This document shows positions 472 to 18,588 of a DNA stretch of 37,140 bases, piece after piece. The DNA is from a virus (lineage: Duplodnaviria > Caudoviricetes). The DNA is taken from positions 1 to 37,140 of IMG/VR virus record IMGVR_UViG_3300028422_001987. One strand, written 5' to 3'. The notes beneath the pieces are model-generated. The model searched no databases, was not told the DNA's origin, and saw nothing but the letters and a program-made list of their open reading frames with translations. The position numbers and the translations under genes were made by a program. The first letter of the stretch is position 1. The number at the start of each line of letters is the position of its first letter.

Positions 472-968
472 GGGGTCTCCGCCTCGGCAGGCGCATCGGT
501 CCCCAGGTACTCCCCCAGGGAGTTGTACCAGCCGGGTGCTCGCTGGCCGGACACGTTGACGAGGTCGGTGCCGGATATCGGGTGGCGGGTTGTCGAGCCG
601 TCCTTCATGCGCTTCTGCACGAACGTCCGGCCCCCATCCTCCACCTGATAGTGCAGCTGGAGCACATCGCTGACGAGTGGGGGCAGCTCGGCCCCGATAT
701 ACTCGGCGCGGACGTTGTACCACCCAGCCAGGGTTACCGGCTCACCGGCGAGCCTGCCAAGCGTCTCCAGCGACACCTCGCGAAGTGGCTTGGTGAGACC
801 ATCCGTTGCACGCTGCACGGAGGCCGCGCGGCCATCGGGCCGCACCTCGTAGAACACGTCCGAGATGGTGTCGCCATCGAGCGGCATGCCAGGCGCCCAT
901 GAGGTCTTCTCCTGCCAGTGAGGGCCCGGCACGAAACTCCGGTCAGCGTCATCGAATTGTTCGGCCAT
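468..968 (-). CDS. Hypothetical protein with two-fold internal repeat; candidate immunity protein for the MuF toxin
   Basis: Starts 1 nt after the MuF-ART stop. GWYNxxxEY(I/L)G occurs twice. Position matches the toxin-immunity layout. Confidence 0.65.
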   Translation of the reverse strand: MAEQFDDADRSFVPGPHWQEKTSWAPGMPLDGDTISDVFYEVRPDGRAASVQRATDGLTKPLREVSLETLGRLAGEPVTLAGWYNVRAEYIGAELPPLVSDVLQLHYQVEDGGRTFVQKRMKDGSTTRHPISGTDLVNVSGQRAPGWYNSLGEYLGTDAPAEAETP

Positions 969-969
969 G

Positions 970-2517
970 TCACAGCTCCGTCATGGTGATGATGTACTTG
1001 CCCCGCTCCTTGTCGACCTTGTCGACGCGGAACCGCGTACCAGGCGCGAAAAGGACTTCGCGCTCGGCGCCGTACTGGGAAAACCGGGCGATATTGACGC
1101 CTGTCTTCCCATCGATCTTCATGATCACATTCCCGTCGAACGCTGCCTCGTCGCCATACGAGGACGAGACAAATGAATTTTCCTCTACCTCTGCGCCTTC
1201 CTGGTAGCGCTTCAGGACCTGATCCAGAGCATCCGGCTTGAACGTCGCCCCGCGGATCGACGGGCCGACAAACCGGGGCATCTTTTGTAACCCTTCCTGA
1301 GCAGCATCGACATACGCCTGGAGGTACGGATCCGTCTCGTACTCGCCCGCCCGCAGAGCGATGTTCAGCGGCTTGTAGGCGCCGCCAGTATACATTCTGA
1401 TGGCGGCCGACTCCTCGACCGTCAGCTCCGGCAGCCCTAGCTTCTGCTGCTGGGCGTTCATGGCGCGCAGGCCCCATGTGTCCACCTCGCCGCCGAACTT
1501 CTGGAGCCCGAGGGCGCGCTGGGCGGGGGAGAATCGGGGCGGTGGCGGTCTGCCGTCGCGTGGCGACGAGGCAGGGCGGGCCGGGGTCATGTCGACCTCC
1601 GATCCCGGTAGCGGGGCCCAAGGGGGCTTCGCTGGAGTTGGCGCAACTGGCGCCGGCGTGGGCACCAGCTTTGGCGGTGGCGGCGGCGGCACCTTCTTCT
1701 TCGCTTGCGCCAGCGCCTCCATCCCAGCCTTCCCAGGGTTGTAGCTCCACCCCGGATCCGGCTGGAACCACATCTCCTTCCCGGTGGACTTGTCCATGTA
1801 CCGCAGACGGGTGACCGGCTTGGTGATGGGGTTGCCGTCGTCGTCCTGCCCCACCCGTACCTGCACCTGTTCGAGCTTGCCGGCGCTGGATTCCACCTTG
1901 AGCCCTTCCTTGTCGAGGCGCTTCTTGCTCAAGGTCCGCACGCCGCAGCGGCAATTGAAGCCGTTGGGCGGATAGATGGAGTCCCAAACCGGGTCGGTCG
2001 CCTCCCATACCCGGCCATGCAGGGCCGCGTGAGTGGGTCGGGTGCGGCCATCCTTGACGGCCCAGTATTGCCAGTAGGGCCGAGACTTCTGGTTCTCCGA
2101 GTCGAACTTGTACCCGCCGACCGAGTAGGCGGTCATCATGTTGACGCGGTAGATGGTGGAGAGGCGGCGGGGGGAGCCCCATTGCACGGGCACGCTGGTG
2201 CCGGGGTAGACCTCCAGGATCTCCCCGGTGTCTGGATCGATGGCCTTGCCCCACCATCCTTTCTTCTGGCAGACCGTGGTCATCTCCTTGATGAACCACT
2301 TCTCGGTCTTGCCTTCCTTCAGGGATTTCGTGATGGCGTTCTGGATATCCTCCTCCAGATCCAGCCGTGCGAGGTGGGCGACGGTGAACGCCTTGGCATG
2401 GGCCTCCTCATACAGCTCATGCCAAGAGCCGGTGATCACCAGTTCCTTGGCTTCAAAATATTTGACCGCCTCCTCGGGCGTGAGGCGGATGGCAAAGCCA
2501 AGATCGACATCACTCAT
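970..2517 (-). CDS. MuF head morphogenesis protein with C-terminal ADP-ribosyltransferase toxin domain
   Basis: MuF motifs HAKAFTVA, DGRTRPTH and YPPNGFNCRC, then a Pro-rich linker, then ART motifs IRG, FVSSS and EREVLF. ATG at 2517 overlaps the portal stop. Confidence 0.9.
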   Translation of the reverse strand: MSDVDLGFAIRLTPEEAVKYFEAKELVITGSWHELYEEAHAKAFTVAHLARLDLEEDIQNAITKSLKEGKTEKWFIKEMTTVCQKKGWWGKAIDPDTGEILEVYPGTSVPVQWGSPRRLSTIYRVNMMTAYSVGGYKFDSENQKSRPYWQYWAVKDGRTRPTHAALHGRVWEATDPVWDSIYPPNGFNCRCGVRTLSKKRLDKEGLKVESSAGKLEQVQVRVGQDDDGNPITKPVTRLRYMDKSTGKEMWFQPDPGWSYNPGKAGMEALAQAKKKVPPPPPPKLVPTPAPVAPTPAKPPWAPLPGSEVDMTPARPASSPRDGRPPPPRFSPAQRALGLQKFGGEVDTWGLRAMNAQQQKLGLPELTVEESAAIRMYTGGAYKPLNIALRAGEYETDPYLQAYVDAAQEGLQKMPRFVGPSIRGATFKPDALDQVLKRYQEGAEVEENSFVSSSYGDEAAFDGNVIMKIDGKTGVNIARFSQYGAEREVLFAPGTRFRVDKVDKERGKYIITMTEL

Positions 2518-4039
2518 CGGCCGCGGCCGCCCGCTGCTGCGCCTGGAGCCGGCCATACAGCTCGCCGACGAAGATCACCCGGGCGAGGAGATCGGTGAGC
2601 TGCTCGAAATCCATCTTCGGGAACAAGGCTTCGAGCCGTGACATCAGCGCTTCGGGATCGACCCCTTCACGCACCTCATCGAATAGCGGCTTGAGCATGG
2701 CTTCCGCGATCGGGCCGAGTTCCTTGTCCAGATTGACCGCTTCCATCGCGGTGAAATCGTCGTCCACTCCCTTTGCGAAATCGAAACCGCCGCGAGAGAA
2801 GGCTTCGAAGCTGGGCGCGGCGGGCGGCTTGCTTTCACCGAACCCCGGCAGCACCGCTTCCCCATCGACCGGCGCCGGGATTTGCAGGCGTTCATGGGCG
2901 AACTGCACCGGCACCTGCACGAACGCCCGCGCCTTGTCCAGCACCTCCACCCAATCCTTGCGGGCTTCGGCCTCTTCATAGAATTCGAAGGTGGGCGGCA
3001 CGGCGCCGGGGACGTTCAGTTCGGTGATCCACGCGAACAGCTCGTTCATCGCGTCGGAAATCACCGTCCGATCGGATTCGTTCACCGCCTCCTCGCGCCC
3101 GCGGTGGGTTTCGGAAGCGGCCCGAGAACCGTTCCCCTGGATCTCGGTCGCCAGCGTCTGGGAGGTGAGGGCCTTCGAGATCTCCCGATTGCATAGCGAG
3201 ATGAGGCGTTCCTGCGGCAGTTGCTGGCCGCCGCCCTTGTTCTCGACCAGTTCGACCAAGCCCCCTTCTGGGATGGCGGCGACCGCGTCCTCGATCATCC
3301 TTGCGAGGGCGTTCGCCAGCGCGTCCTGCTCCGGCTTGGGCGTCCCCAGCGGGTAGCGTCCAATGGCCCAGGGAATGCCGTATTTCTCGCAGAATTTGAC
3401 AAAATAGCGGTAGCCGGAATTCTTGAATGTCCACGGCCAGAAGCAGGAGGAGAACACCGCCACCCCATAGGGGTTTTCGTGGCTCGGCATGTGCCGCGTC
3501 ATCAGCCACTTGTAGGCGCCGAGTTCGAGCCCGCTGATCTGATTTTCGCGGGTAAGCAGGCGCAGCTCGTTGGAGTCGGAGCCGAACGCGAAACGCCGGT
3601 TTGGTTTGTCGAGCACCGCCTCCGGCATGAGGTACTGACCTTGCCGCGCCCATACCACCTCATGGACACGGAACCCACGGAACACGGCGCCGGCCATGTT
3701 CCAGATCACGTCCGGCCAGCGCATGCCGGGCGCTGGCCGCTGGGCCATGAGCTGTTCGCACAGTGCAAACGCTTGCACATCGGAATTCGAGTAGCCGCCC
3801 GCCTGGACCCGCCACTCGAATCCGAGCAGACCGGAGCGGATGGAGCGCAGATCCCCCACCACATGGGCATCGGCGGCGAGGCCGTCGAACACCTCCTCGG
3901 AGCGTCCCAATTTGCGCAACACCGTATCGGGGTTGGGCAGGACGGTCAGCGCAGAAAAGAACTTCGGATCGGTGGTGCGGGTGGCGATCTCGCGGGCGAG
4001 GTTCGCACGGCTGGCCTTGGCCAGGTCGATCTTATCCAT
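2510..4039 (-). CDS. Portal protein (Mu gp29/DUF935)
   Basis: FCEKYGIPWAIGRY and CNREISKALTSQTL motifs. Lies between terminase and MuF. ATG at 4039. Confidence 0.92.
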   Translation of the reverse strand: MDKIDLAKASRANLAREIATRTTDPKFFSALTVLPNPDTVLRKLGRSEEVFDGLAADAHVVGDLRSIRSGLLGFEWRVQAGGYSNSDVQAFALCEQLMAQRPAPGMRWPDVIWNMAGAVFRGFRVHEVVWARQGQYLMPEAVLDKPNRRFAFGSDSNELRLLTRENQISGLELGAYKWLMTRHMPSHENPYGVAVFSSCFWPWTFKNSGYRYFVKFCEKYGIPWAIGRYPLGTPKPEQDALANALARMIEDAVAAIPEGGLVELVENKGGGQQLPQERLISLCNREISKALTSQTLATEIQGNGSRAASETHRGREEAVNESDRTVISDAMNELFAWITELNVPGAVPPTFEFYEEAEARKDWVEVLDKARAFVQVPVQFAHERLQIPAPVDGEAVLPGFGESKPPAAPSFEAFSRGGFDFAKGVDDDFTAMEAVNLDKELGPIAEAMLKPLFDEVREGVDPEALMSRLEALFPKMDFEQLTDLLARVIFVGELYGRLQAQQRAAAADE

Positions 4040-5648
4040 ATCTCGATAGGTCCGTACTGTCGCGGCGACCGCGGGTTGTGATCTGGGGTAGGCCACCGGC
4101 GCCGGAGACCGCCGCCATCCACAGCATCTGGAGTGCGTCCGGTCCGTCGTCGTGGTCCGCCTTGGGGAAGTGCGTCAGCTGGTCGATGAGGGTCCGTTGC
4201 GACGGGTGCAGCCGAATGAGCCCGTTGGCCATGTGCGGCTGGAGCGACTCGATGCGCAGGATCTTGTCGGCGATGGGCGATACGGCGCGGGCCGGTACCG
4301 GGTAGCCGCGGGCGGCCGACCGCTTCACCAGCTCCGAGCGGAGGAACTCCTGAAACTGCACCGTCTCGATCACCCACAGCAGGCAGCGATACTCCTGGTG
4401 TAAGGCAATCACGTCCTCGATGATGCGGTCAGGCAGGCGTTTCCGGATGGCCGCCTCCACCACATCGAGGATCCCGGTCTCCCGATTGAATCCCCCCACC
4501 AGGATGGCGGACGGGTCACGGGACGCGCCGGCCTTGCCGAGCGACGGGTCGCAGGAGCCGAAGAAGAGCCATTCCCGCAGCCGGTTCACCCAGAAGGTGA
4601 TCACCTTGGCGAACGGGGCATCGTCATCGGAGAGCGGATCGTTCTGCAGCTCGGAATCGAATGAGGCATGCCCATCCCGGGCCCGGGTCACCATCAACTC
4701 CACCAGCGGGCGGCCGGCCGGCCAACTCACCTCGGCGCCGGCGTTCATCGCCGTCGCGCGTTCTGCATAGAACGCCTCCGCCGCCGCCTTGCTGTCGTTG
4801 AGCAGCAGCTCCTCCCAGCGGTCCCACAGGTCCATTCGGTGGGGCCAATGGATGAGGGCCTTGAACTTGCGGCTGTTCCACAGGGGGTTCTTGAGCAGCC
4901 GCGCCAGCACCGAGTCGTAATGCAGGATGGTGCCGATGATGATCACATCGAACTTGGCGCCGGCGCCGCCCAGCTTCAGCACCGCCTTGGTGAGCCAGCT
5001 TTGCAACTTGTCGCGCTGCTCTGGGGTGCGGACGTTCTCATCGTTCTCCAGGTCGTCCCCGATGAACAGGTCGGGGCGGTGCGGGCCATGTCGGCGACCG
5101 CGGATGCGCTTGCCGGAGCCCACCGCCTCCACCTTGCGGTCGTTCGCGGTGACAATGACGCCCGCCTGCCACACACGGCCGCGCCCAGTCGCTTCCGGGA
5201 AATCCATCGACAGGCGCGGATTGCTCTCCAGCTCTGCCTTGATGGCCTCCAGCATGATGGCCGCCTGGTCAAAGGCATCCATGCCGATCATCGGGTACCA
5301 CTTCCTACCGGTCACGAGACACCACAGCACGAAGAGCTGGCTGGTGATGGTGGACTTTGCCTCGCCGCGGGGTGCGGCGATTGCGTCGGTCTCGCTCTGG
5401 TCGGAGTCGGCGATCTCCGGCAGCCGGCGATACAGATAGTCGTGCAGCCGGCTATTCGGCTTGGTGACGTAGTGCGGGAAGTAGGTGCGGGCGAAGAACT
5501 CGAAATCGGTATCGGCCCGCTCCCGGCGCGCCTTGGACGCTGAGGGATCCGGATCAAAGCCCGAAACCTGGGCCTCGATCTGCGTGCGGAATTCAGCCGC
5601 CAGTTCTGCGAGCTGCTGGGCGAACTGACGGGTGGAGAGCTTAGCCAT
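4032..5648 (-). CDS. terL: Terminase large subunit
   Basis: Walker A-like APRGEAKST, RPDLFIGDDLEND, nuclease DPS and HDDGPDAL. Confidence 0.95.
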   Translation of the reverse strand: MAKLSTRQFAQQLAELAAEFRTQIEAQVSGFDPDPSASKARRERADTDFEFFARTYFPHYVTKPNSRLHDYLYRRLPEIADSDQSETDAIAAPRGEAKSTITSQLFVLWCLVTGRKWYPMIGMDAFDQAAIMLEAIKAELESNPRLSMDFPEATGRGRVWQAGVIVTANDRKVEAVGSGKRIRGRRHGPHRPDLFIGDDLENDENVRTPEQRDKLQSWLTKAVLKLGGAGAKFDVIIIGTILHYDSVLARLLKNPLWNSRKFKALIHWPHRMDLWDRWEELLLNDSKAAAEAFYAERATAMNAGAEVSWPAGRPLVELMVTRARDGHASFDSELQNDPLSDDDAPFAKVITFWVNRLREWLFFGSCDPSLGKAGASRDPSAILVGGFNRETGILDVVEAAIRKRLPDRIIEDVIALHQEYRCLLWVIETVQFQEFLRSELVKRSAARGYPVPARAVSPIADKILRIESLQPHMANGLIRLHPSQRTLIDQLTHFPKADHDDGPDALQMLWMAAVSGAGGLPQITTRGRRDSTDLSRYG

Positions 5649-6138
5649 AGAGGCGGCTCAGCTCCTCGCCGAAGGGTTCCAACACCTCCAGCAGCGCCGG
5701 AGCGTGTTGCGGGTAGCGAGTACGGAGGTACTCGACAAACCGCTCCAGTACTTCCAGGGCCACCGAGAGCTTAGCGAGCTTGCCATCACCGCCCCCGGCC
5801 GCCTTCACCGTCTTGGTGTAGGCATCGGCCAGCTTGGCGATGGCCTCGGCGCGGACGATGGCCGGGATCTTGTTATCCTGAAGTTCCTCCATTGTGAACT
5901 GGAACAGCAGGGCGAAATCCTCCAGCACTTGGGTGGTCAGATCGCCCAGCCCACCGACCACCATGCGGGCGGCCTGGCGCGCCCGGTCCCAGTCGTCCCC
6001 GGTTTCTTTGCCCTTCGCCTTCCAGCTGCGAACCGTAGCGAATGCCACCCCATGCTTCTCTGCCGCGGCCTCCAGTGAGAGGCGCTCGACGACGAAGGAC
6101 CGGCGGACTGCCGCGCGGAGTTCTGGGGGATGAGCCAC
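5641..6138 (-). CDS. Terminase small subunit (Mu-type, DUF1804-like)
   Basis: N-terminal HTH, WKAK..GDDWDRAR motif, directly upstream of terL. Confidence 0.85.
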   Translation of the reverse strand: MAHPPELRAAVRRSFVVERLSLEAAAEKHGVAFATVRSWKAKGKETGDDWDRARQAARMVVGGLGDLTTQVLEDFALLFQFTMEELQDNKIPAIVRAEAIAKLADAYTKTVKAAGGGDGKLAKLSVALEVLERFVEYLRTRYPQHAPALLEVLEPFGEELSRLYG

Positions 6139-6477
6139 TCACCCCTCCCCGCGCAGGCGCTGCGCCAGCAGGCTGGTACCCACGCCGATAATTCCACCGG
6201 GCGGCCGGCGCTGGACCCCCGGCACATCGGCTCGGCCCAATGCGACATCGATGCCGCGCTGGGTGAGCATGGCGGCACCAGCCTGGTGCTCCACCAACCC
6301 CTGCTCGGCCAGCCACGCCACCTCGGTCCGCACCCGGTCCAGGCCGATGGCCAGCGCATGGGATTCCAGCGCATCTTGCAGCAGCTGGAGCGGTGCGGTG
6401 TAGGACGGCTCCCGCTCCAGCGCCTCCAGCAACATGCGCCGGATGAGCCCGGCATGCCGCTCCCGGTAATCCGTCAC
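6139..6477 (-). CDS. Mu gp26-like winged-helix protein
   Basis: DRVRTEVAWLAEQGLV...LTQRGIDVALGRADVPGVQR, in the conserved position upstream of the small terminase. Confidence 0.8.
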   Translation of the reverse strand: MTDYRERHAGLIRRMLLEALEREPSYTAPLQLLQDALESHALAIGLDRVRTEVAWLAEQGLVEHQAGAAMLTQRGIDVALGRADVPGVQRRPPGGIIGVGTSLLAQRLRGEG

Positions 6478-6842
6478 GGTGTCTTTCCCATCAGGTGGTG
6501 GTGGATGGTCTCCAGCAGGCCCCGCATGCCGGACGACTCGCCCACCAGGCGCTGGACCTGGCCGGAGAGATGGCCGACCGAGCTGTGCACCTCGGAGGCG
6601 AGGGCATCGATCCGGGCGTGCAACCGGATGAGGTCATCCTCGGAGGGTGCGTGCTCCACATGGGTCTCCAGTACGGTCATGCGTCGGTCCAGCGCCGCGA
6701 TGTCACGTGCGTTGGCTTCGGCGTGTTGGGTGAGGTCAGCCCGCTGCACGATGGTGGCCCGGATGGTCAGCGCGGCCCAGGCGGCCAGCACCGACAGGAT
6801 GGTGGTGGCGATCGGCAACCATTTCAGGATTTGGTCAAGCAT
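6474..6842 (-). CDS. DUF2730-like protein (N-terminal TM plus coiled coil)
   Basis: ATG at 6842. One TM helix, then RMTVLETHVEHAPS. Usual Mu position before gp26. Confidence 0.75.
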   Translation of the reverse strand: MLDQILKWLPIATTILSVLAAWAALTIRATIVQRADLTQHAEANARDIAALDRRMTVLETHVEHAPSEDDLIRLHARIDALASEVHSSVGHLSGQVQRLVGESSGMRGLLETIHHHLMGKTP

Positions 6843-7411
6843 GCAGCCCCCCGCAGCCGGGTGGCCGATTCCTCCCACGCGGTGGCGCCGAACAGATCGA
6901 CCGCCCGCCACATCAACTGCGTCGTGATCGGATGAGTGCCCCACTTGGGCATCGCATCCAGGAAAACGCGGTCCGCGTCGCCTTTGGAGATGCCCGGTGG
7001 TTGGGTGCGATAAAGGAAGTCGTGGATGATCGCCGGCACACCGTATCGACCCCAGGGCGAATAGAGCCAGTGCAGCCACCAAGGCACCGATGCGAAATCA
7101 GTGACGAAGCCGACCGGGACAACGATCGCCTGGCGCAGGTGGGCCGAGTGGTAGCGCACCTCCTCGGTCAGCTGCCAATGCTTGCCATCCGGTAGCGGCC
7201 GCAGGGCTGGAAGCATCTCCGGAGTGATCGCCACCCGCTGCGTGGCGGTCAGTCGTCCATATAGGGACCAGAGCCCACCGGCCAGGCCGGCCAACGCGAG
7301 CAGCCCCGCCGGCATCGAGGGGACGAACAGCAGGTGCAGCAACCCGGCGATGCCTGCGCCGACCGAGAGCAGGGAGCCGCGTACGCCGTGTGATGCAAGG
7401 AGGTGCTTCAT
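6824..7411 (-). CDS. DUF1353 domain protein with two N-terminal TM helices
   Basis: VPVGFVTDFASVP...AIIHDFLY...ADRVF, preceded by two hydrophobic segments. Confidence 0.8.
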   Translation of the reverse strand: MKHLLASHGVRGSLLSVGAGIAGLLHLLFVPSMPAGLLALAGLAGGLWSLYGRLTATQRVAITPEMLPALRPLPDGKHWQLTEEVRYHSAHLRQAIVVPVGFVTDFASVPWWLHWLYSPWGRYGVPAIIHDFLYRTQPPGISKGDADRVFLDAMPKWGTHPITTQLMWRAVDLFGATAWEESATRLRGAACLTKS

Positions 7412-7938
7412 GGCAGCAGCTGATGCAGCCCAACCGCCAGCCGCACCAGCTCAAGGCCAGCGTCGACCAGCTCCCGGGCGCGGTCGGCGGATGGGGTGGC
7501 ACGGTAGGCATCGTAGGCGACCCGCAGCTGGTCGTGGCGCCGCCCGAACGCCTCCAGCGCTCGCCGGTCGTCGGCGCCGAACGTGTGCAGGTGCGGCCCC
7601 ACCAGTGCGCGACCATCCAGGTACAGCGCCTCGGCCCGCGCCAACACCAGGTCAAATTCGGCGGGCGTGGGCAGGGTGGTCAGGTCCCGCGGCCGATCCA
7701 GCTCGGCCAGTAGGGCGTCCACCTGCACCCGCAGCTCCCGCCAGCGCGCCTGGTCCTCCTCTGGCCACTCCCCGACGTGCTGCTCTACCCGGGACAGCGC
7801 GTGATCGATCTCGTCGCGAGCGGTGAGCACGCTGGTGGCGGTGGCCACCGCGGTGGCCAGGTGGGTCGGATCTTCCTGGTTGGCGCAGCCCACCAGGGCA
7901 GTGACTGCAATGGGGATGGCGATGATCAGTTTCTTCAC
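7408..7938 (-). CDS. Helical lipoprotein in the lysis cassette
   Basis: Signal peptide MKKLIIAIPIAVTA with LVGC lipobox. AAGGAG RBS. Confidence 0.8.
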   Translation of the reverse strand: MKKLIIAIPIAVTALVGCANQEDPTHLATAVATATSVLTARDEIDHALSRVEQHVGEWPEEDQARWRELRVQVDALLAELDRPRDLTTLPTPAEFDLVLARAEALYLDGRALVGPHLHTFGADDRRALEAFGRRHDQLRVAYDAYRATPSADRARELVDAGLELVRLAVGLHQLLP

Positions 7939-7956
7939 GGGGTTCTCCTTTTCCTG

Positions 7957-8439
7957 TCAAAAACAGTCCGGCCGTGCCACAGCCCGACCCAGGGCCATGA
8001 AGCCCTTCTGCAGATCAGTGGTGGCGATATTCGCCCAGAGGGGATCGTGCTCGGGCAGTTCCAGGCGAATGCGTTCGATGAGCTGGCCGATTTCGTTGCC
8101 CTTCGCCTTGATGGCGTTCATCAGGTCCAGCTCCTGCTGGTCGAGCGCGCGATAGCCGGTAATCGGGGGTGGGGTGTAGAGGGGGTTACTGCTCGCCGTA
8201 TCCATCGGTGTGTAGCCGGACTCGAAGGCGTGAGCCGGGGAATAGCTCTCGTACCCGTCCTCGTACCGAACCCAATAGCCGCCCACCTGCGGGTTGTGTT
8301 TGGTGATGAAATCACTTGTCACCACCACTGCGGGCATCCCCTGTTTTGGGAAGAGGTTCCACATAAAATCGTCGATTTGGCGGGTTCCTTCGATGCGAAA
8401 GGCTTCCACCACCTTGTGGGACTGGAATATCGGGAACAT
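7957..8439 (-). CDS. acb2: Two-domain protein: N-terminal YxDGYxSxSP domain fused to Acb2-like cyclic nucleotide sponge
   Basis: C-terminal ITGYRALDQQELDLMNAIK...WANIATTDLQKGFMALGRAVARPDCF matches the Acb2 pattern as recalled (GYRxLxxxE..MN..K ... W..I..TD.Q.G.MA..RA.A.P..F). Confidence 0.85.
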   Translation of the reverse strand: MFPIFQSHKVVEAFRIEGTRQIDDFMWNLFPKQGMPAVVVTSDFITKHNPQVGGYWVRYEDGYESYSPAHAFESGYTPMDTASSNPLYTPPPITGYRALDQQELDLMNAIKAKGNEIGQLIERIRLELPEHDPLWANIATTDLQKGFMALGRAVARPDCF

Positions 8440-8954
8440 CAGGTCTTCGCTCCTGTGACGCGGGTTAGCGCTTGGTCAATCGAATGCAGGCCGGGGACAT
8501 AGACCGTGCGCACCGCGCCGCCCGGACCCACCGGCGCCTTCACGGCAGTGAGCAGAGAGCGGCGCGGCTGCTGTCCGGCAACGGCGATGGAGACGTGAGT
8601 CCAGCGGCCGAACTCGTGGATGATCTGGTCGGCAACTGCGGGGAGGTTGCGGTGGATCCAGCGACACACCTCCAGCGGCGCAACGCCCGGACAGAGGATG
8701 TCGGCGGCCAGCCCCTCAAGGTGCTGGCTCTTCGCGGCCCCGCCCACCAGGGTATTGACCTCCGGAGAGCGGTACCCGGACAACACCACCGTCGGGCCAA
8801 ACGCCTCCCGCACCGGCTCCAGCACGGAGTGACAAAGTCGCTGGAGGTTGGCCATCACCGGAGACGCCTCCGGCACGACGATGTCGATGCCGTGCCGAGT
8901 AGCGGTCTCCGAGTGCGTCAACTCGGCGAGGGTAAAGTGGGGCGAGATGCGCAT
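8439..8954 (-). CDS. Endolysin, peptidase M15A family
   Basis: SPHFTLAEL, SGYRSPEVN, SQHLEGLAAD and WTHVS (Zn ligands H, D, H). ATG at 8954. Confidence 0.9.
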   Translation of the reverse strand: MRISPHFTLAELTHSETATRHGIDIVVPEASPVMANLQRLCHSVLEPVREAFGPTVVLSGYRSPEVNTLVGGAAKSQHLEGLAADILCPGVAPLEVCRWIHRNLPAVADQIIHEFGRWTHVSIAVAGQQPRRSLLTAVKAPVGPGGAVRTVYVPGLHSIDQALTRVTGAKT

Positions 8955-9133
8955 GCAGCCCTCCGGGTAAAGTGGTCGGCGACATAAAACCGGACCCACT
9001 CCCGGCACCAGGCCGGCACCTCGGCCAAGGCGGTAGTGCGAGCGTCCCGTGTCGGCAGTTCGATGATGCGGGCGGCGTAGTGACGCGGCCACGGATCACC
9101 GGGGTACCATTCACGGTACGTTGATGGGTCCAT
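8918..9133 (-). CDS. Small hypothetical protein, first gene of the lysis operon
   Basis: ATG at 9133 directly after the late promoter. WPRHYAARII..TRDARTTALAEVP. Overlaps the endolysin start. Confidence 0.6.
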   Translation of the reverse strand: MDPSTYREWYPGDPWPRHYAARIIELPTRDARTTALAEVPAWCREWVRFYVADHFTRRAACASRPTLPSPS

Positions 9134-9141
9134 ACCGGGCC

Positions 9142-9188
9142 AGATTGCCGGTGGACGGGGGATTCGAGGAGGGGGAAACACTTCCCCC
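9142..9188 (-). promoter_or_regulatory. Putative Mor/C-activated late promoter (lysis/packaging operon)
   Basis: GGGGGAAgtgTTTCCCCCTCCTC-N18-CAATCT. Near-identical copy upstream of gene I. Confidence 0.75.
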
Positions 9189-9241
9189 AGGCGGGGGGTG
9201 GGGGGACATCAGTCTCTCGGGGAGAGGGTACGGGCGTCAAG

Positions 9242-9652
9242 TCAGGCGAACAAATCGCCCGTTGGGTCCGGCGAGCGGTCGCGGGCGGCCTGGCGGATCT
9301 GCTTAACCCGACGCCAGGTGATCCCCAGTTCGTGTGCCACGGCCCGTGCGCTCTTTGCACCGCTACCGACCGCCTCCAAGAGATAGTGGTTGCGGAGCTG
9401 GGCCAGCAGCTTATCGGATTTCGGTAAATCGACCGTGTCGCCCGCGAGCGGCGATGCACACAGCGCCGCCAGTGCCGACGGCGCGATCACATCGCGTAGC
9501 GCGGTCTGGTCTGGGTGGGTGGGGATGTAGAGAGGCAGCCCGCCGCGGGCCTCCAGGAGGCGCAGCGTCTCCGCCACCCCCAGGAGGCCCACCAGCTGCC
9601 GCAGCAGCGGCGGCAGCAGGGAGGGATCGATGATGTCGAGGTCACTCGACAC
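9242..9652 (-). CDS. mor: Mor/C family late transcription activator
   Basis: LLPPLLRQLV..LG...GGLPLYIP...RN and C-terminal HTH (AHELGITWRRVKQI). Follows gemA. Confidence 0.88.
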   Translation of the reverse strand: MSSDLDIIDPSLLPPLLRQLVGLLGVAETLRLLEARGGLPLYIPTHPDQTALRDVIAPSALAALCASPLAGDTVDLPKSDKLLAQLRNHYLLEAVGSGAKSARAVAHELGITWRRVKQIRQAARDRSPDPTGDLFA

Positions 9653-10109
9653 CAACGCCCTCCCGGAGGGACCAGCTCTTCAGCCCCTCGATGCAGGCGT
9701 TGAGCCCGGCGGACTTCGCCCACTCCAGTTGGGCGGTCTTGGTATGGTGCGCGCACCACTTCACCATCGCCGCCTCGCTCCTATCCCGCACCACCCCCGC
9801 GTCGGCGAGAGCGCACCAGAGGGCGGTGATCTTCTCGATGCGCGGCCGGCGCCAGTCCTGCGAGCGCGGCCGGCTTTTCCCGGTGGGTTTGAACCCCTTG
9901 GCCTTCATCTCCTCCAGCGCCGCCTCAAGGCCGCCGATGGGCATGGTGGTGGCGGAGTACCGGCCCTTGACCTGCTTGGCGCCGTGTCGAGCCAGGAACA
10001 GGCGGTAGGCCTCCTCATCCATACCGATGTCGGCACGGCCGACTTGGAGCAGGGTGTAGAGGTGCTTGCGCGGGTCGGCTTTGTTTGAGGCGGTGCTGTT
10101 GTTTTTCAT
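9642..10109 (-). CDS. gemA: GemA (Mu gp16/DUF1018)
   Basis: IGMDEEAYRLFL, KITALW..L...GVVRDRSEAAM and CIEGLKSW. Confidence 0.9.
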   Translation of the reverse strand: MKNNSTASNKADPRKHLYTLLQVGRADIGMDEEAYRLFLARHGAKQVKGRYSATTMPIGGLEAALEEMKAKGFKPTGKSRPRSQDWRRPRIEKITALWCALADAGVVRDRSEAAMVKWCAHHTKTAQLEWAKSAGLNACIEGLKSWSLREGVGVE

Positions 10110-10468
10110 ATCACGCTGTACCCGTGGCTCTCAAGAAGTTTCTTGGCCCGCTCAAGCTCTACCGTAGCCCGCCGCAGTTTTGGATCAAACGGTTTAGCGC
10201 CAAGCCATGCTCGAACTTCATTCACTTCCCTGAACGTCATGCGCTTGCCGCTATTTCTCCATTCCCAATTTTCGCATGGTCGCCACCCAGGCAGCGCCAC
10301 GGACATTCGATATACATCAAGGTCATCTCTGCAAAGAACTTGACAATCCTCCTTGCTAGAGAAACCGCAACGCCGAAGCGCGTGTATCGTCCGGGTCGTT
10401 AGGCCTCTGTGCCACGGAATTAGTTGCCGAATAGTCTCCGCCTCGATTCGCTTCTGCCCCGGATTCAT
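10106..10468 (-). CDS. Hypothetical protein, more AT-rich than its neighbours
   Basis: ATGA coupling at both ends. Confidence 0.7.
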   Translation of the reverse strand: MNPGQKRIEAETIRQLIPWHRGLTTRTIHALRRCGFSSKEDCQVLCRDDLDVYRMSVALPGWRPCENWEWRNSGKRMTFREVNEVRAWLGAKPFDPKLRRATVELERAKKLLESHGYSVI

Positions 10469-11001
10469 GCCACCGCCTTCGCGGGCTCGGCCCGCTCGAT
10501 CTCGGAACTGAAGGGCTTGGCGACGAACTCCTCCTTCTGCGAGATGGTGATCCCGGCCACCCCCTTCACCGCCTCCGGTTCGGAGAGGATCGCCTCCTTG
10601 TTCACCTCCTCCTTGGTGCGGACGAACCGTTTAAGTCCGAGCCGCTTCAGGGTCTCGATCACCACCGCCGGCTGCCGCACCGTGACGCTGGGCGGCGTGG
10701 TGCGCCAGGCCACATCGCCCGTGGCCAGCTTGGCCGTCTTGCCGCCCTTGGCGAGCAGCTCGCCACGGTGCGCTTCGGCCCAGGCGTGCAGGGCGGTGAA
10801 CTTCGTTTCGATGGCGCTGTTGACAGGCTTCGCCAGCTCTTCATAGCGCCCTTTGATCACGCTCAATTCGTCATTCATCGCCGCTTCGATGCGGCTCACC
10901 TCCCGTTGCAGATCGCCGATTTCCTGCAAAATAATCTCGGCCTCGTCCTGGGTAGCCGGCACCGCGAGGGTGTCGGTCTTGATCCGATTACGCTTCGCCA
11001 T
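10465..11001 (-). CDS. gam: Gam host-nuclease inhibitor
   Basis: IGDLQRE..RIE..MNDE, KTAKLATGDVAWRTTPPSV and FVRTKEEVNKEAIL. Confidence 0.95.
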   Translation of the reverse strand: MAKRNRIKTDTLAVPATQDEAEIILQEIGDLQREVSRIEAAMNDELSVIKGRYEELAKPVNSAIETKFTALHAWAEAHRGELLAKGGKTAKLATGDVAWRTTPPSVTVRQPAVVIETLKRLGLKRFVRTKEEVNKEAILSEPEAVKGVAGITISQKEEFVAKPFSSEIERAEPAKAVA

Positions 11002-11386
11002 CGTTCTGCTCCTGTCGATTTAATTCCAGTTCGTACTGTTTCACCAGCTCCCCCGGTCGCATCCGCCGCAGCGCCGCTTCCTGGCGCAACGACGACAGCG
11101 CCCGGACGTGGAACCAGTCCACCGTAGGCTGCAGCTCCTTGGCGTTGCGGGCGATGTAGTACCCGCCGCCGGCGCTGCTCTTGTGCGCCACCGGCATCCC
11201 TTCACGCCGCAGCTCCTCCACCAGCGAACGGACGATCCGCGACTGGTCGTAGCGCCGCCACGGGATCACCACCTCACCGGTGATGGCCTGGAACAGCGCG
11301 ATCATGGTGATCGGGTGGTCCGCGGTGTGCTCCTCCAGGATCTCCCGGATGCGCCGCCGCAACTCGGCGCGGTCGTCCGTCTGCAC
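10988..11386 (-). CDS. Winged-helix DNA-binding protein
   Basis: RIVRSLVEELRREGMPV...GGGYYIA. Coupled within the early operon. Confidence 0.75.
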   Translation of the reverse strand: MQTDDRAELRRRIREILEEHTADHPITMIALFQAITGEVVIPWRRYDQSRIVRSLVEELRREGMPVAHKSSAGGGYYIARNAKELQPTVDWFHVRALSSLRQEAALRRMRPGELVKQYELELNRQEQNDGEA

Positions 11387-11388
11387 GG

Positions 11389-11922
11389 TTACTTCCCCCT
11401 CGCTGCTGAGAACAATGCTTTCGGCGGCGGAGTCCGCTTGGGCGGCTCCGCCTTTGGCGCCGGCGCCGGCTCAACCGGCATCGGCGTGAGGTCACGATAG
11501 GGCTGGCGATGGCGCTCGATCTGGGCCTGCTCCTGTCCGGCCGCCGCCCGCCGCGCCATCGTTGTCACCACCTCCAGCAGGTAGCCGTGGCTCTTCACCG
11601 GACGCTGGAGGGTGGGCGAGGCGGCCATCGTCTCCATCGCCTCCCGCCAGTACTCCAGCGGCGCCGGCCAGGTCTGCCGATCCCGGGTGACAGACCGCGG
11701 CTCCATCAGCCCCTGGATCTCCACTAATAGCCGCGCCAGTTTCCGCTCCTGGAGCCGTTTGCCGGGCGGGGCCCACAACGCCAGATAGTCGAGCAGCGCA
11801 TCGGCGATGCGCGGATCGATCCGCAGCGCCGCCCCCAGCGCCTGGCGGGAGCGGGTCTCCGCCAGATACTCCGCCAGCGGCCGGCTGTCGCCGCAGGCCG
11901 GACAGATCCCGATCACGCCCAT
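11389..11922 (-). CDS. Conserved-type Mu-like early protein
   Basis: N-terminal CPACG, YLALWAP and PVKSHGYLLEV. Confidence 0.75.
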   Translation of the reverse strand: MGVIGICPACGDSRPLAEYLAETRSRQALGAALRIDPRIADALLDYLALWAPPGKRLQERKLARLLVEIQGLMEPRSVTRDRQTWPAPLEYWREAMETMAASPTLQRPVKSHGYLLEVVTTMARRAAAGQEQAQIERHRQPYRDLTPMPVEPAPAPKAEPPKRTPPPKALFSAARGK

Positions 11923-12281
11923 GACCCCTCCTCGCCGGCGAGCGCCGCCCGTACCGCCTCCAGATCAGCCAGCAGGGCCTCCGCCTCGCCGCGGAAAGCG
12001 GCGCGCATGGCGAGGCCATCGAGGATGGCCTGCGGTGCCTGCACGAATGTGTCGAATCGGATCTGCATCGACCACAGATCCAGCGCCTCATAGATCGACG
12101 CCCAGTGCTCGATGTAGGACTCCGGCAGCCGCACGCTGGTCACCACGGTGGGCTCGCGCACCTGCACCAGGTCCCATCCATCGCCGTGTGCCGGCGCTCG
12201 CCGGAGCGACCAGGTCGCCACCCCAACGCCAGCGAGAGCGAAGAGAGCTGTTGTGGTGTAGAGGATCGGTTCGATAGTCAT
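11913..12281 (-). CDS. Hypothetical protein with N-terminal TM
   Basis: GGAGG RBS, ATG at 12281 coupled to the upstream stop. Confidence 0.7.
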   Translation of the reverse strand: MTIEPILYTTTALFALAGVGVATWSLRRAPAHGDGWDLVQVREPTVVTSVRLPESYIEHWASIYEALDLWSMQIRFDTFVQAPQAILDGLAMRAAFRGEAEALLADLEAVRAALAGEEGSWA

Positions 12282-12505
12282 GCCCGCCTCCTGCTTACGC
12301 GCTCCAGCGCGGTGAACGACACCTTCACCACCAGCGTGTCGTTGTCCGAGAGCACGAAGTGCTGAACCCGGCACTGGTCGCATGAGCGCAGGGTGTCCCA
12401 CAGCTCGCCCGCGGGCGGTACCTGCTGGCCGATCACGGTACCGCACGCCGGGCAGCGGTAGGCCACGGTGCGGTACGTCGGCGCCTTCTTCTTTGTCATG
12501 CCCAT
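12278..12505 (-). CDS. Small zinc-ribbon protein
   Basis: CPAC...CDQC, immediately after MuB. Confidence 0.7.
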   Translation of the reverse strand: MGMTKKKAPTYRTVAYRCPACGTVIGQQVPPAGELWDTLRSCDQCRVQHFVLSDNDTLVVKVSFTALERVSRRRA

Positions 12506-12506
12506 C

Positions 12507-13559
12507 TCAACCCCCAGTGGGGCGCTTCAGCCCCATCAGCTGCTGACCGGCAGAAAACACCAGCTCGGCCGAAAGAGAGTGCCCTTGCTGTAGCCCCAGC
12601 TCGATGACGTTGCGGATGAGCTTGGTGAGCACGCGAGCGTGTCCCGAGCACATCTGCCAGCAGGCATCGAGCACCGGATCGGTCAGTTCGACATCCGGAG
12701 CGTTGTGGGCGAAGGCGGCGCGGGTGATGGCCGCTGCATCCTCCACGGTGATGGCCTTGATCTCGGGCGGCCAGAACCCGACCCGCGAGGAGATCTGCCC
12801 GTGCTTGCCATTGGCGTTGGCCACCATCGTGCGCAGCAGGGCGTTACCGGAGAGCACCAGTCCGATCTCGGCGAGGTCCGAGATCCGCCGGGCGTATTCC
12901 AGGCACTGATCGGTCGTCTTGTCCGCCTCGTCGATCACCAGCAGCCGATCGGTCTGCCGCAGCGCCTCGACGATGGCTGCCAGCATCTCCGGCTTGGTCC
13001 CGGTGCTGTCGCGCCGGGACCGCTGCGGCGCCGCTCCGGTGCGCTGCACCAGCGTGCGCAGCAGGGCGGTCGCGTTCATGTCCGGCTGCCCTTCGATGAT
13101 GATCGTGTGGGCGTGCTGGGCGGCGTACCGCTTGAGACCCGCCGTCTTGCCGGTCCCAACCACACCGGTGAGGATCCCGATGTCTCGGTATCGGCTCGCC
13201 CGGTCGCAGACGTAGCCGACCAACTTGCTGACGCTGGTCTCAACGAACGGGATCTCCAACGAGGTGGCGCGGGCCGCCTCGCGGGCGACCCATTGCAGCG
13301 CCGCCTGCAGGTGCTTGGTCGGCGGGCTCGGGTAGAGCCCGCGGAGGATGCTGTTGAGGGTCGCCGCAGAGACACCGATTGCGCGCGCCACCTTCGCCTG
13401 CGAGCGATGATTGGGGTAGCCGGGGGCGTGGGTCTGCCCGGCGTTGATCCAGTCGACCAGCCGCACCACCGCGGCCTGGTCCTCGTCACTGTAGTGAGCG
13501 GGCCATTCGGTCGGTGCCTCGGCCAGACTCTGGATGTGCTGCGTCACAGCTGCGTTCAC
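12507..13559 (-). CDS. MuB-like AAA+ transposition ATPase
   Basis: N-terminal HTH, Walker A GVVGTGKT, Walker B LLVIDEAD. Follows the transposase. Confidence 0.93.
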   Translation of the reverse strand: MNAAVTQHIQSLAEAPTEWPAHYSDEDQAAVVRLVDWINAGQTHAPGYPNHRSQAKVARAIGVSAATLNSILRGLYPSPPTKHLQAALQWVAREAARATSLEIPFVETSVSKLVGYVCDRASRYRDIGILTGVVGTGKTAGLKRYAAQHAHTIIIEGQPDMNATALLRTLVQRTGAAPQRSRRDSTGTKPEMLAAIVEALRQTDRLLVIDEADKTTDQCLEYARRISDLAEIGLVLSGNALLRTMVANANGKHGQISSRVGFWPPEIKAITVEDAAAITRAAFAHNAPDVELTDPVLDACWQMCSGHARVLTKLIRNVIELGLQQGHSLSAELVFSAGQQLMGLKRPTGG

Positions 13560-13606
13560 GTGCTACACTCCTTACGGTTTGTTGCTGGGAAACGGGACTG
13601 GAGCGG

Positions 13607-15331
13607 CTACTCCTGATCCCAATCGAAGGGGGTCAGCCTGACCGGGCTGGCCCCTTTGTCTTTGCGTCGCTCGGCATCGAGCACCGAGCCCACCAGGTCG
13701 ATGGCCGGCCCCGCCGGCTGATGCTCCAGCGCCGGCGCCGCCGGCGGGCCCGATAGTTGCTCCAGCTGCACCAGCGCCTGGTCGTGGCTGAGGGCCGGCC
13801 GGTGCTGCGCCTCCACCTCCGCCACCTTCCGTGCCAGCCGCTTGAGCTGGCCCTCGCGCCGCTTCGCCCGCGCCTCCTCCAGGCGGGAGGCCGGCAGGTA
13901 GTCCTGCTTGCTCTTCAACTCCGCCACGCACAGCAGCCGGTCCTGCTCGTCGTAGACCCACACATGGGTGTCGTCGTGGATCGAGTACTCCACCGGCAGC
14001 AGGCGGCGCTCGTACATCGCCAGGTCGGCGTGGGAGTAGGTCCGGTTGTCGAGGATGAGGGTGCTACGGCGCACCACGCGCGCCTGGCGCTCGCGCACCA
14101 GCGCCGCCTCGGGCAGCTCCAGCGGAACACGCTCCAGGGTGGCCCACAGCTCGGCCGGGGTGCGGCCGTCCAGCGCGCTGTGGGGGGTGTTGTTGTAGCG
14201 GTCGATCCAGCGCGTCAGGCTGTCGCGGTATTCGCCCAGGGTCGGCAGGCGCCGCTTACCCTGCTTAATCTGGTCGTGCAGCCGGCGGTTGATCTCCGAG
14301 GCCATGTCGTCCCCGCAGTACCACTCACCGCCCATGAACAACTTGTCGTGCTGGTCGCGCAGCGTCCGGAACCACCGCTCGATGTTGCCTTTGCCCTTCG
14401 CGTTGCCGGGCAAGGCGAACATCGGCGTGATCCCAAATCTCGCATAGAATCCGTTCGCCTCGTCGCTCATCAGCTTCGCCTTGAATCCGGAACCTACGTC
14501 CACGTGCAGCAGCGCGCACACGTGGTCCCAGGTCAGCAGCGCGTGTCCAAGGGCTAGCTGAGTGGTGCGGCTCGACTCGGATTCGGTGATGTACCAGCCG
14601 ACGATGTATCGGGTGGCAAGGTCCATGACGGCCGTCAGCTCGGCACGCCAAATGCCGCCGCTGAACGGGTGCCGTAGATAAACGTCGACGGTGTGCCCGT
14701 CCATCTGGTAGAGCTCGCCCACCAGCAGGCAGGAGGTGTCTCTGGACCGGTAGCGGCCGATGTTCTGGCGGTAATAGTGCGTGCCCACCCGCAGCGGGCT
14801 GTGCGAGCCATGCGTCTCCGGCATGGATTTGAGGTAGCTCCGCACCCGGTCGTCGGAGGCATCAACAAATCCCTCGTCGCGCAGCTGCGCGGCCACGGCG
14901 GCATAGGACGGCTGCGATGGGATGTGGTACAGGCTCATCGCCCGCAGCTCCCACCCATAGGTCTTCCGAACGGATCCGCGATACCCCGGCGCCAGCGCCG
15001 GCAGCCCGCCGGAGCGGTGCGCCTTGATCCAACGCTGGACGGTCGCGCGGGATGGGCAGTCGCCCCCGCGGGCGAGCTGCTCGGCGGCGCTCTTGAGCTG
15101 GCCATCCACCTGGCCCAGCGTCACCGCCCGCAGCACGTACTCCACCGCCGCCCGCTCGGACACGCCGGGGCGTACCCGGGCGAGGGCCGCGGCAACGATC
15201 TGATACCGCGCCAGCGCGACCGCCCGCTTGTCCGCCGGCAGCCGCTCCCAGGCGGACGGCGCCGGCGCCGCCGGGTCCGGTTTGCGCGGGCGCGGCAGGC
15301 CCGGCATGTGGTAGGGGATGAGGTTGCTCAT
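13607..15331 (-). CDS. MuA-like DDE transposase
   Basis: QMDGHTVD, LHVDVGSGF and KGNIERWF. Mu-type C-terminus (VEYSIHDDTHVWVYD). ATG at 15331. Confidence 0.95.
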   Translation of the reverse strand: MSNLIPYHMPGLPRPRKPDPAAPAPSAWERLPADKRAVALARYQIVAAALARVRPGVSERAAVEYVLRAVTLGQVDGQLKSAAEQLARGGDCPSRATVQRWIKAHRSGGLPALAPGYRGSVRKTYGWELRAMSLYHIPSQPSYAAVAAQLRDEGFVDASDDRVRSYLKSMPETHGSHSPLRVGTHYYRQNIGRYRSRDTSCLLVGELYQMDGHTVDVYLRHPFSGGIWRAELTAVMDLATRYIVGWYITESESSRTTQLALGHALLTWDHVCALLHVDVGSGFKAKLMSDEANGFYARFGITPMFALPGNAKGKGNIERWFRTLRDQHDKLFMGGEWYCGDDMASEINRRLHDQIKQGKRRLPTLGEYRDSLTRWIDRYNNTPHSALDGRTPAELWATLERVPLELPEAALVRERQARVVRRSTLILDNRTYSHADLAMYERRLLPVEYSIHDDTHVWVYDEQDRLLCVAELKSKQDYLPASRLEEARAKRREGQLKRLARKVAEVEAQHRPALSHDQALVQLEQLSGPPAAPALEHQPAGPAIDLVGSVLDAERRKDKGASPVRLTPFDWDQE

Positions 15332-15615
15332 TGGACCGGCCCCCTTAACGTCAGGGCGAAGTCCAGCGCGGACTCCCGCAGCATCGCCAGCTCCACATCG
15401 GCCATCGCCGCATAGGCGGTGGCCGCATCCAGCTCGCCCCCATAGGCCGCGAGCGCCACAGCGATGGTGCTGTACTTGTGCAGCTCGGCCGAACACGTGA
15501 TACACCCGCAGCCCCGCTGGAGGTACCGCTCAATCTCCCCCTCGCTCTGCGCCAGCGCCGCCGCCAACTCTTCTGGGCTCCCCTCCACGAGATTCACAAC
15601 CATCACCTCAGCCAC
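15328..15615 (-). CDS. Hypothetical protein
   Basis: GTG at 15615 overlaps the upstream stop. Its own stop is coupled to the transposase ATG. Contains CGCITC. Confidence 0.65.
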   Translation of the reverse strand: MAEVMVVNLVEGSPEELAAALAQSEGEIERYLQRGCGCITCSAELHKYSTIAVALAAYGGELDAATAYAAMADVELAMLRESALDFALTLRGPVQ

Positions 15616-16678
15616 GGCCCACCCCCTTGCGCGGCCGGCCGCGGCCACGCCTCACCGGCTCGGCGCCGGCGCGGATATCGGCCCGGGCCGCCGACTGGGC
15701 CCGATGCTGGGAGAGCAGTACCTCGCGGGTGGTCATTGCCTGCACCACCTCTGCATTGCTGAACGGGATCAGGATGGTGTCGTCGCCCTCGACGACGTCG
15801 GGTTCCAGTCGCTCAGCGGCCTCGCCCATCACCCGGTTGGCGCGGGCGGTCACCGCGCGCAGCTGCGCCCACAGCGCGCCGGCACCGCCTCGGTACTCGG
15901 CATCCGAATCGGGCTGCTGCTGTATCCACCGCTCCAGGAGTCGATGCAGCTCGTCGATGGCGAGGAGCGCCTGCTCGGCCAGCGCCGCCGACTCCATGCG
16001 CACTTCGGCCACAATGGACGGCCAGGGGGACGGCTCGCGTTGGGTACTCTGCTGGCGCCGCAGGTCGAGCAGCTCCATCTCGCTCTGCTCCAGGAGGTGT
16101 TTGGTGCGGTTCAGTTCCTCCTCGAACTCCTTCCGTGCGTCGGACCGCTCGGCGTCCCGAATCCTCTCCTGCAGATCTCTGTAAGAGAGCGACGGCAGGG
16201 CATCCAACGTGATGCCGTGGACCTCTTCGCCCTCCACAAGCGAGGCGAACTCAGGAGCTGGTAGACGACGCAACACGAGCAGCTTGGTCTGATCGATCTG
16301 GAGCAGGGCGTTGACCAAGGCACCGCCGCCCGCCTGTGCGGCTTGCTCCAGGACCTCATAGACCCCTTTGTAGTTGTAGAGCGTCGACGGGTGTGCACCG
16401 ATACGGCGCGCCTCGTCGACAATGAACGGACGCCCCCCGAGGTCGTGCGCTTGCGCAAGATTCCACCCAGCCAGCGCGGCGTGGGCAGCACCCTTCTGCA
16501 TGTGCCGCAGAAACGCCTGGAAGTAGGCGGCCGGGTCATTGGATGGGGCCTCTGGGGCCGCCTCATCCATCTGCTGCATGATGTGGGAGAGCCACGACGG
16601 CGGCGTGCGCTGCACCAGCGCTCCGCCGTCGTGTTCTGGGATGGTCATCCCAGTGGTGGGTTTCTTCTTGGTCGCCAT
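15608..16678 (-). CDS. Helical early protein upstream of the transposase (DUF3102-like position)
   Basis: 356-aa ORF with GITLDALPSLSYRDLQERIR and a coiled coil. Confidence 0.7.
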   Translation of the reverse strand: MATKKKPTTGMTIPEHDGGALVQRTPPSWLSHIMQQMDEAAPEAPSNDPAAYFQAFLRHMQKGAAHAALAGWNLAQAHDLGGRPFIVDEARRIGAHPSTLYNYKGVYEVLEQAAQAGGGALVNALLQIDQTKLLVLRRLPAPEFASLVEGEEVHGITLDALPSLSYRDLQERIRDAERSDARKEFEEELNRTKHLLEQSEMELLDLRRQQSTQREPSPWPSIVAEVRMESAALAEQALLAIDELHRLLERWIQQQPDSDAEYRGGAGALWAQLRAVTARANRVMGEAAERLEPDVVEGDDTILIPFSNAEVVQAMTTREVLLSQHRAQSAARADIRAGAEPVRRGRGRPRKGVGRG

Positions 16679-16699
16679 CTTTCGTATTCCATTGGTTGT

Positions 16700-17170: not shown

Positions 17171-17239
17171 TGATTTACCCCCCCTTCCGGGGTACGCTGT
17201 TCCTGGCGTACACCACCCGCACACACCAGGAGGTCAACG

Positions 17240-18580: not shown

Positions 18581-18588
18581 AATGGGGG

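Follow-up and report, generated by a model that had tools for sequence, protein, structure and literature searches.

Published sponge proteins are small and form homo-oligomers whose pockets lie between protomers; fusions are frequent among them, and Sequestin was discovered by following fusion partners (Tal et al., bioRxiv 10.1101/2025.07.12.664507). In Acb2, Y11 and K26 form part of the cyclic-dinucleotide site and R67 and T74 part of the trinucleotide site; the latter varies within the family, and the R67A substitution abolished cA3 binding in PaMx33 Acb2 (Cao et al., PMC10312549). For some homologues of Acb2 the ligand is 3'cADPR (Hadary et al., bioRxiv 10.1101/2025.08.24.671296).

Hadary et al. 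(bioRxiv 10.1101/2025.08.24.671296, Methods) excluded from their set fusions of a sponge with a domain labelled 'PDB 6E3C', the structure of the Dec protein of phage L; the architecture of a sponge plus a Dec-like domain is thus not new, being already in that 2025 study. In the crystal of RyR Tad gp68, strand beta1 of the N-terminal domain inserts into the other protomer; this domain alone (gp68_N, residues 1-86) was apparently inactive against type I Thoeris, gp68_C alone was active, and the preprint describes the domain as a fold of unknown function that is often a single ORF (bioRxiv 10.64898/2026.06.04.730250). In its accessible text, an October 2026 review names seven families of sponges without describing any of them as this domain (PMC13712596). 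The residues with which Dec contacts the capsid are K30, Y31, Y49, Y71 and E73 (PMC6449081).

A fusion gene in the lysis region of a Mu-like prophage

We analysed a window of 37,140 nucleotides (the whole stretch of phage DNA under study), in which the following features surround and make up a gene for a two-domain protein.

7957..8439, minus strand: fusion gene, 160 aa, Dec-like OB domain plus Acb2 (Pfam, phmmer, AlphaFold, Foldseek, GC)
8200..8439, minus strand: N-terminal Dec-like OB-fold domain, aa 1-80 (AlphaFold, Foldseek, VIA, hhalign, dimer prediction)
8164..8199, minus strand: flexible Pro-rich linker, aa 81-92 (pLDDT <50 over aa 83-95)
7957..8163, minus strand: Acb2 domain, aa 93-160 (Pfam, phmmer, Foldseek, residue roles from PMC10312549)
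8439..8954, minus strand: endolysin, Peptidase_M15_3 (Pfam E 3.9e-19; phrog_894 endolysin E 2.8e-38)
7408..7938, minus strand: lipoprotein-like ORF, 176 aa, with signal peptide and lipobox (sequence; NCBIfam lipoprotein matches below cut-off only)
9242..9655, minus strand: Mor/C-like HTH gene upstream (weak Mor match, E 0.08, below cut-off)

The fusion gene was intact in translation, and all motifs quoted for it in a preliminary description of this DNA were present. It begins with ATG, has an AGGAG ribosome-binding site in front, and its start codon shares one base with the stop codon of the endolysin gene (TGATG). Its GC content was 0.588, below that of 11 other phage genes that were measured (0.64-0.71), which fits the expectation for an acquired accessory gene. 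The protein's cluster is a singleton, and an ESM Atlas feature search with it returned nothing but unnamed viral clusters, at 0.89. Among 42 matches, however, four more full-length proteins of the same N+Acb2 layout were found (P0003-P0006; 40-47% identity), indicating that the fusion is no accidental read-through.

The order of genes up to this point was transposase, AAA ATPase, Gam, GemA, the weak Mor-like gene, endolysin, fusion gene and lipoprotein-like ORF, followed by DUF1353, DUF2730, DUF1804, a 538-aa ORF, a Mu portal and MuF. The surroundings are those of a Mu-like transposable prophage. The 538-aa ORF stands in the position of the large terminase, and no relevant Pfam match was obtained for it. 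The HTH gene at 9242..9655 is likely the late activator, as judged also from its place between gemA and the lysis genes. The location between endolysin and lipoprotein noted in the preliminary description was borne out by the Peptidase_M15_3 gene upstream and the ORF with signal peptide and lipobox downstream. Its suggestion of late expression held in part: gene order, rather than a promoter, places this copy in a presumed late operon, a Sigma-70 scan of positions 6000-10200 having found no promoter and two terminator-like sites at chance level, but such a position is neither special nor a family trait. It is ordinary because acb2 of JBD67 also sits among late head genes, two genes past the major head gene (coordinates via PMC10312549). 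Next to relatives of the N-terminal domain, replication and packaging genes were equally frequent (11 each among 140 neighbours). Two of 51 other genomes of the phage's family carry a stand-alone Acb2, and none carries the fusion. The host genome (95.6% complete), queried with the SMODS and ThsB_TIR families alone, matched neither.

Other parts of the window merit description in their own right. The ORF at 6824-7411 (minus strand) places a DUF1353 domain behind a hydrophobic N-terminal stretch at the expected holin place; none of the genes in the lysis block was recognised as a holin. The ORF at 970-2556 (minus strand) encodes a MuF head-morphogenesis protein (PF04233, E 3e-24) with an ADP-ribosyltransferase domain (PF03496, E 2e-12; PF01129) fused at its C-terminus. 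Fusions of MuF with toxins are known, and this ORF resembles them; it is possibly an enzyme delivered by the virion against the bacterial host. Beyond the early genes, a second head/tail gene set at 23108-36431 (plus strand), with a weak capsid match, Mu gp36, a tail terminator and a tape measure, faces opposite to that at 1-19717 (minus strand); the layout is either split in the manner of B3, or a second prophage is present.

The Acb2 half and the N-terminal OB-fold domain

The AlphaFold model of the fusion protein contained two domains joined by a low-confidence linker (residues 83-95). Together with the translated ORF and the Pfam and phmmer matches, this confirmed that an Acb2-like domain is fused to a second domain, as the preliminary description had claimed, and its assignment of the last ~70 residues to Acb2 held by Pfam, phmmer and fold over residues 93-160. 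Residues 95-156 matched PF24729 (Acb2_Tad1_hairpin) with 53 bits against a cut-off of 27 (E 3.9e-14), and phmmer aligned the C-terminal half with the solved Acb2 p26 (8ixz/8h2j) at E 1e-8. In the model this half formed two long antiparallel helices (101-127 and 133-155), which aligned with Acb2 in Foldseek (8h2x, E 2.7e-3). Part of the NPLYTPPP stretch, earlier taken for a linker, is the N-terminal lead of an Acb2 subfamily, since PPPITGYR recurs in the fusion P0003 and PPITGYR occurs in the stand-alone Acb2 P0027.

Residues Y96, K111 and T141 correspond to Y11, K26 and T74 of Acb2 and are kept, and R67 is replaced by L134. Over 68 Acb2 rows, which are close relatives collected with the fusion protein's own patterns, Y96 was present in 67 and K111 in all 68, and Arg was found at the R67 column in 66. 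The Acb2 half would assemble into the hexamer typical of Acb2, and the kept residues make it likely that this half binds cyclic dinucleotides such as 3'3'-cGAMP. Binding of cA3 is doubtful because of the replacement of R67 by L134, and the cyclic-trinucleotide site has probably been lost. Since some Acb2 homologues bind 3'cADPR, the ligand of this half is not certain.

Residues 1-80 were modelled as an OB fold with a pLDDT of 97. Foldseek returned phage L Dec (6e3c) at E 2.7e-4, with a TM score of 0.71 and 24% identity, and VIA aligned Dec over 80 residues (Z 7.6, rmsd 3.4); Dec was the sole clear PDB match. Residues 1-94 had no Pfam match at E 0.1 and no NCBIfam family. The preliminary description had proposed comparing this half with Tad1, Tad2 and Acb4; no sequence-profile match to them was obtained, and a Dec-like OB fold was found instead. 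Family profiles searched against PDB sequences, Tad1, Tad2 and Acb4 included, returned Dec only, plus one row at E 1.5, and in fold searches Dec came first, with Tad1, Tad2, Acb4 and Sequestin not among the matches listed. At the level of sequence profiles, identity of the domain with Tad1, Tad2, Acb4 or Sequestin was rejected; one of these may still stand among the unlisted fold matches.

The domain belongs to a large family, comprising 5,784 clusters at 50% identity (profile search, E up to 0.001). It matched the N-terminal halves of PHROGs 11049, 872, 9467 and 32732, and the C-terminal halves of PHROGs 872, 9467 and 32732 aligned with the Tad2, Acb4 and Sequestin parts of relatives. In an alignment of 125 rows, K9, G62, Y63, F72 and G75 were invariant and H8, H48, Y55, Y59, D61, S65, S67, P68, E73 and Y76 nearly so; the C-terminal motifs had served as search patterns for loci, and H8 and K9 had not. 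Alignment of gp68_N with the domain by hhalign gave a probability of 96 (E 1.9e-9), pairwise BLAST gave E 0.009, and the family profile missed gp68_N at E 0.01; as judged from these alignments, gp68_N is a divergent homologue. The gp68 structure was not among the PDB matches. Among the matches listed in searches of the main texts of open-access papers and bioRxiv preprints, none gave the domain a function, and two mentioned it (Hadary et al. and the gp68 preprint).

Similarity to Dec did not extend to its functional residues. The Dec contact residues align to variable positions of the family or to the differing residues D61 and Y63, Dec is without the H-K and S-x-S-P motifs of the family, and the N-terminal domain had no match to phrog_3018, which Dec matches at E 9e-59. 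Labels of GenBank homologues (Dolphis gp96) as capsid decoration proteins were rejected, since they look transferred from Dec similarity: the genes around that for gp96 are hypothetical ones, one for a methyltransferase and one for a regulator. In a separate observation, the C-terminal part of gp184 (chain I of PDB 8y6v) matched the Tad1 domain of P0012 at E 3e-8. If 8y6v is the phiKZ capsid structure, as we take it to be, gp184 would carry a virion-borne sponge-like domain.

Multimer modelling, also proposed in the preliminary description, was run on the N-terminal domain and predicted a homodimer with an ipSAE of 0.64, compared with 0.01 for the best of three controls; 20 of 30 solved pairs reached the mark used, as did 1 of 23 single chains. 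Contacts agreed between runs at >=94% and pLDDT was >=87. The prediction supports self-association of the domain. In the closest predicted contacts, strand 2-7 pairs with residues 10-14 of the other copy, matching the strand swap of the gp68_N crystal, and the predicted interface includes H8, K9, Y59, D61, Y63, F72 and Y76. By a hand tally, conserved residues made up 13 of 30 positions at the interface and 13 of 52 elsewhere; enrichment was rejected as not significant (Fisher p 0.14).

Partners and neighbours of the N-terminal domain family

Longer relatives of the domain were scanned for partners (91 of 150 listed; the scan left aside four of 125-127 aa and everything shorter). No Pfam partner was found in 67, and in 19 of the 24 that were annotated the partner was a sponge: Sequestin in six, Tad2 in five, the Acb2/Tad1 hairpin in five, Acb4 in two and RyR in one. 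The remaining five matches were to DUF551 (twice), to DUF2158, weakly to RMF, and in one case inside the N-terminal domain itself. P0012 joins the domain to Tad1 (PDB Tad1, E 1.7e-13). With at least five unrelated sponge families as partners, several separate fusion events are needed. For the N+Acb2 fusions themselves we do not claim several origins: the AU test did not reject one clade for the six fusions (p 0.83), the tree constrained in this way scored higher, and they may go back to a single event. The tree of the domain itself, built from 84 rows (all 44 sponge fusions and 40 of 153 stand-alone proteins, with 104 'other' rows left out), was poorly supported, with 2 of 81 branches starred.

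Of 301 distinct family proteins, 153 were stand-alone, 44 were fused to a sponge, as called with small custom profiles, and 104 carried other or unrecognised sequence. That 153 stand alone argues for a function of the domain's own. We also collected 107 distinct loci (118 fetched, minus seven duplicates and four without a called ORF), and in 11 of them the domain was fused to a sponge. Separate sponge genes at these loci numbered 11 within 300 bp of the N-domain gene, in ~122 kb of sequence, and two farther away, in ~639 kb. One locus (L168) holds an unfused pair, the N-domain gene followed by acb2 at a distance of 2 bp; most Acb2 loci are stand-alone. The 140 adjacent genes (150 had been picked, and 10 from duplicate loci were left out) comprised 11 for replication or recombination, 11 that were packaging/portal-like and none for a major capsid protein. 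The N-domain gene shows the behaviour of a mobile accessory and not that of a structural gene with a fixed place.

Several arrangements among the relatives were recorded. Stacked sponge cassettes were seen at L035:465-1711, L045:3272-4215, L090:4965-5776 and L199:4600-5507, the combinations being Tad2-Sequestin beside N-Acb4, N-Tad2 beside Acb4, and N-Tad2 beside Acb2. Tandem pairs of the domain, one copy often degenerate, occurred in P0046, P0047, P0060, P0077, P0167 and P0007, and these proteins may form the dimer within one chain. Unrecognised domains are fused to the N-terminal domain in P0112, P0121, P0105, P0103, P0124, P0127, P0181 and P0100; by analogy with the sponge partners, they are candidates for further anti-signalling modules. 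At L050:3458-4270 the domain follows a MazG/deoxyribosyltransferase-like nucleotide-metabolism domain, and phrog_37613 (MazG-like) also includes it.

Interpretation and comparison with known systems

We lean slightly towards the fusion being a dual nucleotide-signal sponge, in which the candidate ligand of the second module is left unnamed. The Mu-like prophage would express a two-module sponge together with its late genes. The Acb2 half, as a hexamer, would soak up cyclic dinucleotides such as 3'3'-cGAMP and probably not cA3. The N-terminal domain would make strand-swapped dimers, three per hexamer, in which H8, K9, D61 and Y63, with Y59 and Y76, would line an inter-protomer pocket capturing a second immune signal, probably one other than the type I Thoeris signal. 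In this way one late gene could weaken two signal-based defences in the next host. We favour a dual sponge because the N-terminal domain fits the published sponge traits of size, oligomerisation and fusion where these could be tested. The preliminary description had already proposed a second anti-defence module, and the sponge partners, sponge neighbours and predicted dimer agree with this; the lack of activity of gp68_N, the one tested homologue found, against type I Thoeris in the preprint does not. Also counting against a dual sponge are the 67 long relatives in which no Pfam partner was found, partners such as DUF551, DUF2158, the MazG/deoxyribosyltransferase-like domain and a tandem N-terminal domain, the weak enrichment of conserved residues at the interface, the absence of SMODS and ThsB_TIR matches in the host genome, and the fact that the sole solved fold relative is a capsid decoration protein.

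Fusion counts would look alike for a sponge, an enzyme and an inhibitor of proteins, and counts of fusions and neighbours indicate membership in anti-signalling gene sets, not mechanism. The domain might act against defence differently, by cleaving a signal, by binding a sensor, synthase or effector, or by shielding from Panoptes-type guards. Acb5 cleaves a signal, and the invariant His, Lys, Asp, Ser and Tyr residues could be catalytic; anti-signalling hotspots moreover include the non-sponges Bes1/Bes2 and Tad3 (bioRxiv 10.64898/2026.06.04.730250). We nevertheless regard such an action as rather unlikely, given that small size, a predicted homodimer and conserved interface aromatics match the published sponge profile, and that OB folds commonly bind nucleotides or nucleic acids. 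That the domain is a mere dimerisation or stabilising arm, raising the avidity or stability of the fused sponge, agrees with the dimer predicted here, with the contribution of the gp68 N-terminal domain to crystal dimerisation and its inactivity alone, and with partners that are themselves dimers, tetramers or hexamers (Tal et al.). This appears improbable, however, when about half of the family stands alone, stand-alone copies still adjoin sponge genes, and when the partners oligomerise and work without the domain, as gp68_C and most Acb2 proteins do.

Binding to capsids in the manner of Dec, either to decorate the virion or to tether Acb2 to assembling capsids, where the tether could mask or quench capsid-triggered signalling, agrees with Dec being the sole clear structural match. 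The dec gene of phage L also lies between lysis genes and terminase, the present copy is in a presumed late operon, and a Tad1-like domain occurs in gp184 of PDB 8y6v. Yet the capsid-contact residues are not conserved, the spike is absent, the H-K and S-x-S-P motifs of the family are missing from Dec, and major capsid genes were absent from neighbours that include 11 replication or recombination genes. The record of phage CB1 flags several virion proteins confirmed by mass spectrometry, gp68 not among them, and we consider a capsid role, too, to be improbable. Least credible, and very improbable in our judgement, is a decaying or neutral passenger gene with a partly degenerate Acb2 (R67L) and an N-terminal domain idle in this copy. 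The replacement of an Arg present in nearly all Acb2 rows and the singleton cluster point that way, but the ORF is intact, it has a ribosome-binding site and translational coupling, and in both domains hardly any family-invariant residue is lost.

The Acb2 half by itself is ordinary and the value lies in the N-terminal half, whose family occurs alongside five or more sponge families and was left aside in published work with no function assigned. We regard the domain as a strong candidate for a new sponge family. More tentatively, and as a possibility that we would not yet back, the Dec-like OB domain may found a sponge family of thousands of clusters that shares an ancestor with Dec and captures a signal that common panels miss, possibly an undescribed one. 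In that case, a single phage fold would have been used both for capsid cementing and for immunity quenching. A ligand, if found, would extend the list of sponge families and could bring to light a bacterial immune signal by way of the phage protein that binds it. The present fusion is a handy test case in which the Acb2 half serves as a built-in positive control, and the apparent loss of the trinucleotide site raises the idea that another signal is taken care of by the second module.

The locus can be set against the described systems as follows. It shares with Acb2 (PaMx33/p26, PDB 8H2J and 8IXZ; JBD67 orf24) the helical hairpin, the GYR..K and W..T..Q.G motifs and the Y11/K26 pair, and JBD67 is likewise a transposable phage with acb2 among its late genes; unlike p26 and JBD67 Acb2, the fusion protein has an N-terminal OB domain, Leu in place of R67 and a shorter inter-helix loop. 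With phage L Dec (PDB 6E3C) it has in common the OB fold and the P..GGY and F...YT pattern, but it has the linker and Acb2 where Dec has a C-terminal trimer spike, other conserved surface residues, and a predicted dimer where Dec is a trimer. The fusions filtered out by Hadary et al. similarly combine a Tad1, Tad2 or Acb2 sponge with a Dec-like domain, and were removed from that analysis and, in its accessible text, given no function. Acb4-Tad2, Tad2-Sequestin and Acb4-Sequestin (Tal et al.; Ab09 gp59) also place two small modules in one gene, and those tested block two defences; both of their halves are proven sponges, whereas here only one half comes from a proven family. RyR Tad gp68 of Pectobacterium phage CB1 differs in its shorter, divergent N-terminal subfamily, its RyR-like gcADPR sponge partner in place of Acb2 and its gene beside a primase. 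It nonetheless shares with the fusion protein the YQSHK and GY.V.Y..S.SP motifs, matches to phrog_872 and phrog_9467, and the joining of this domain to a sponge with a strand-swapped dimer, predicted in the present case.
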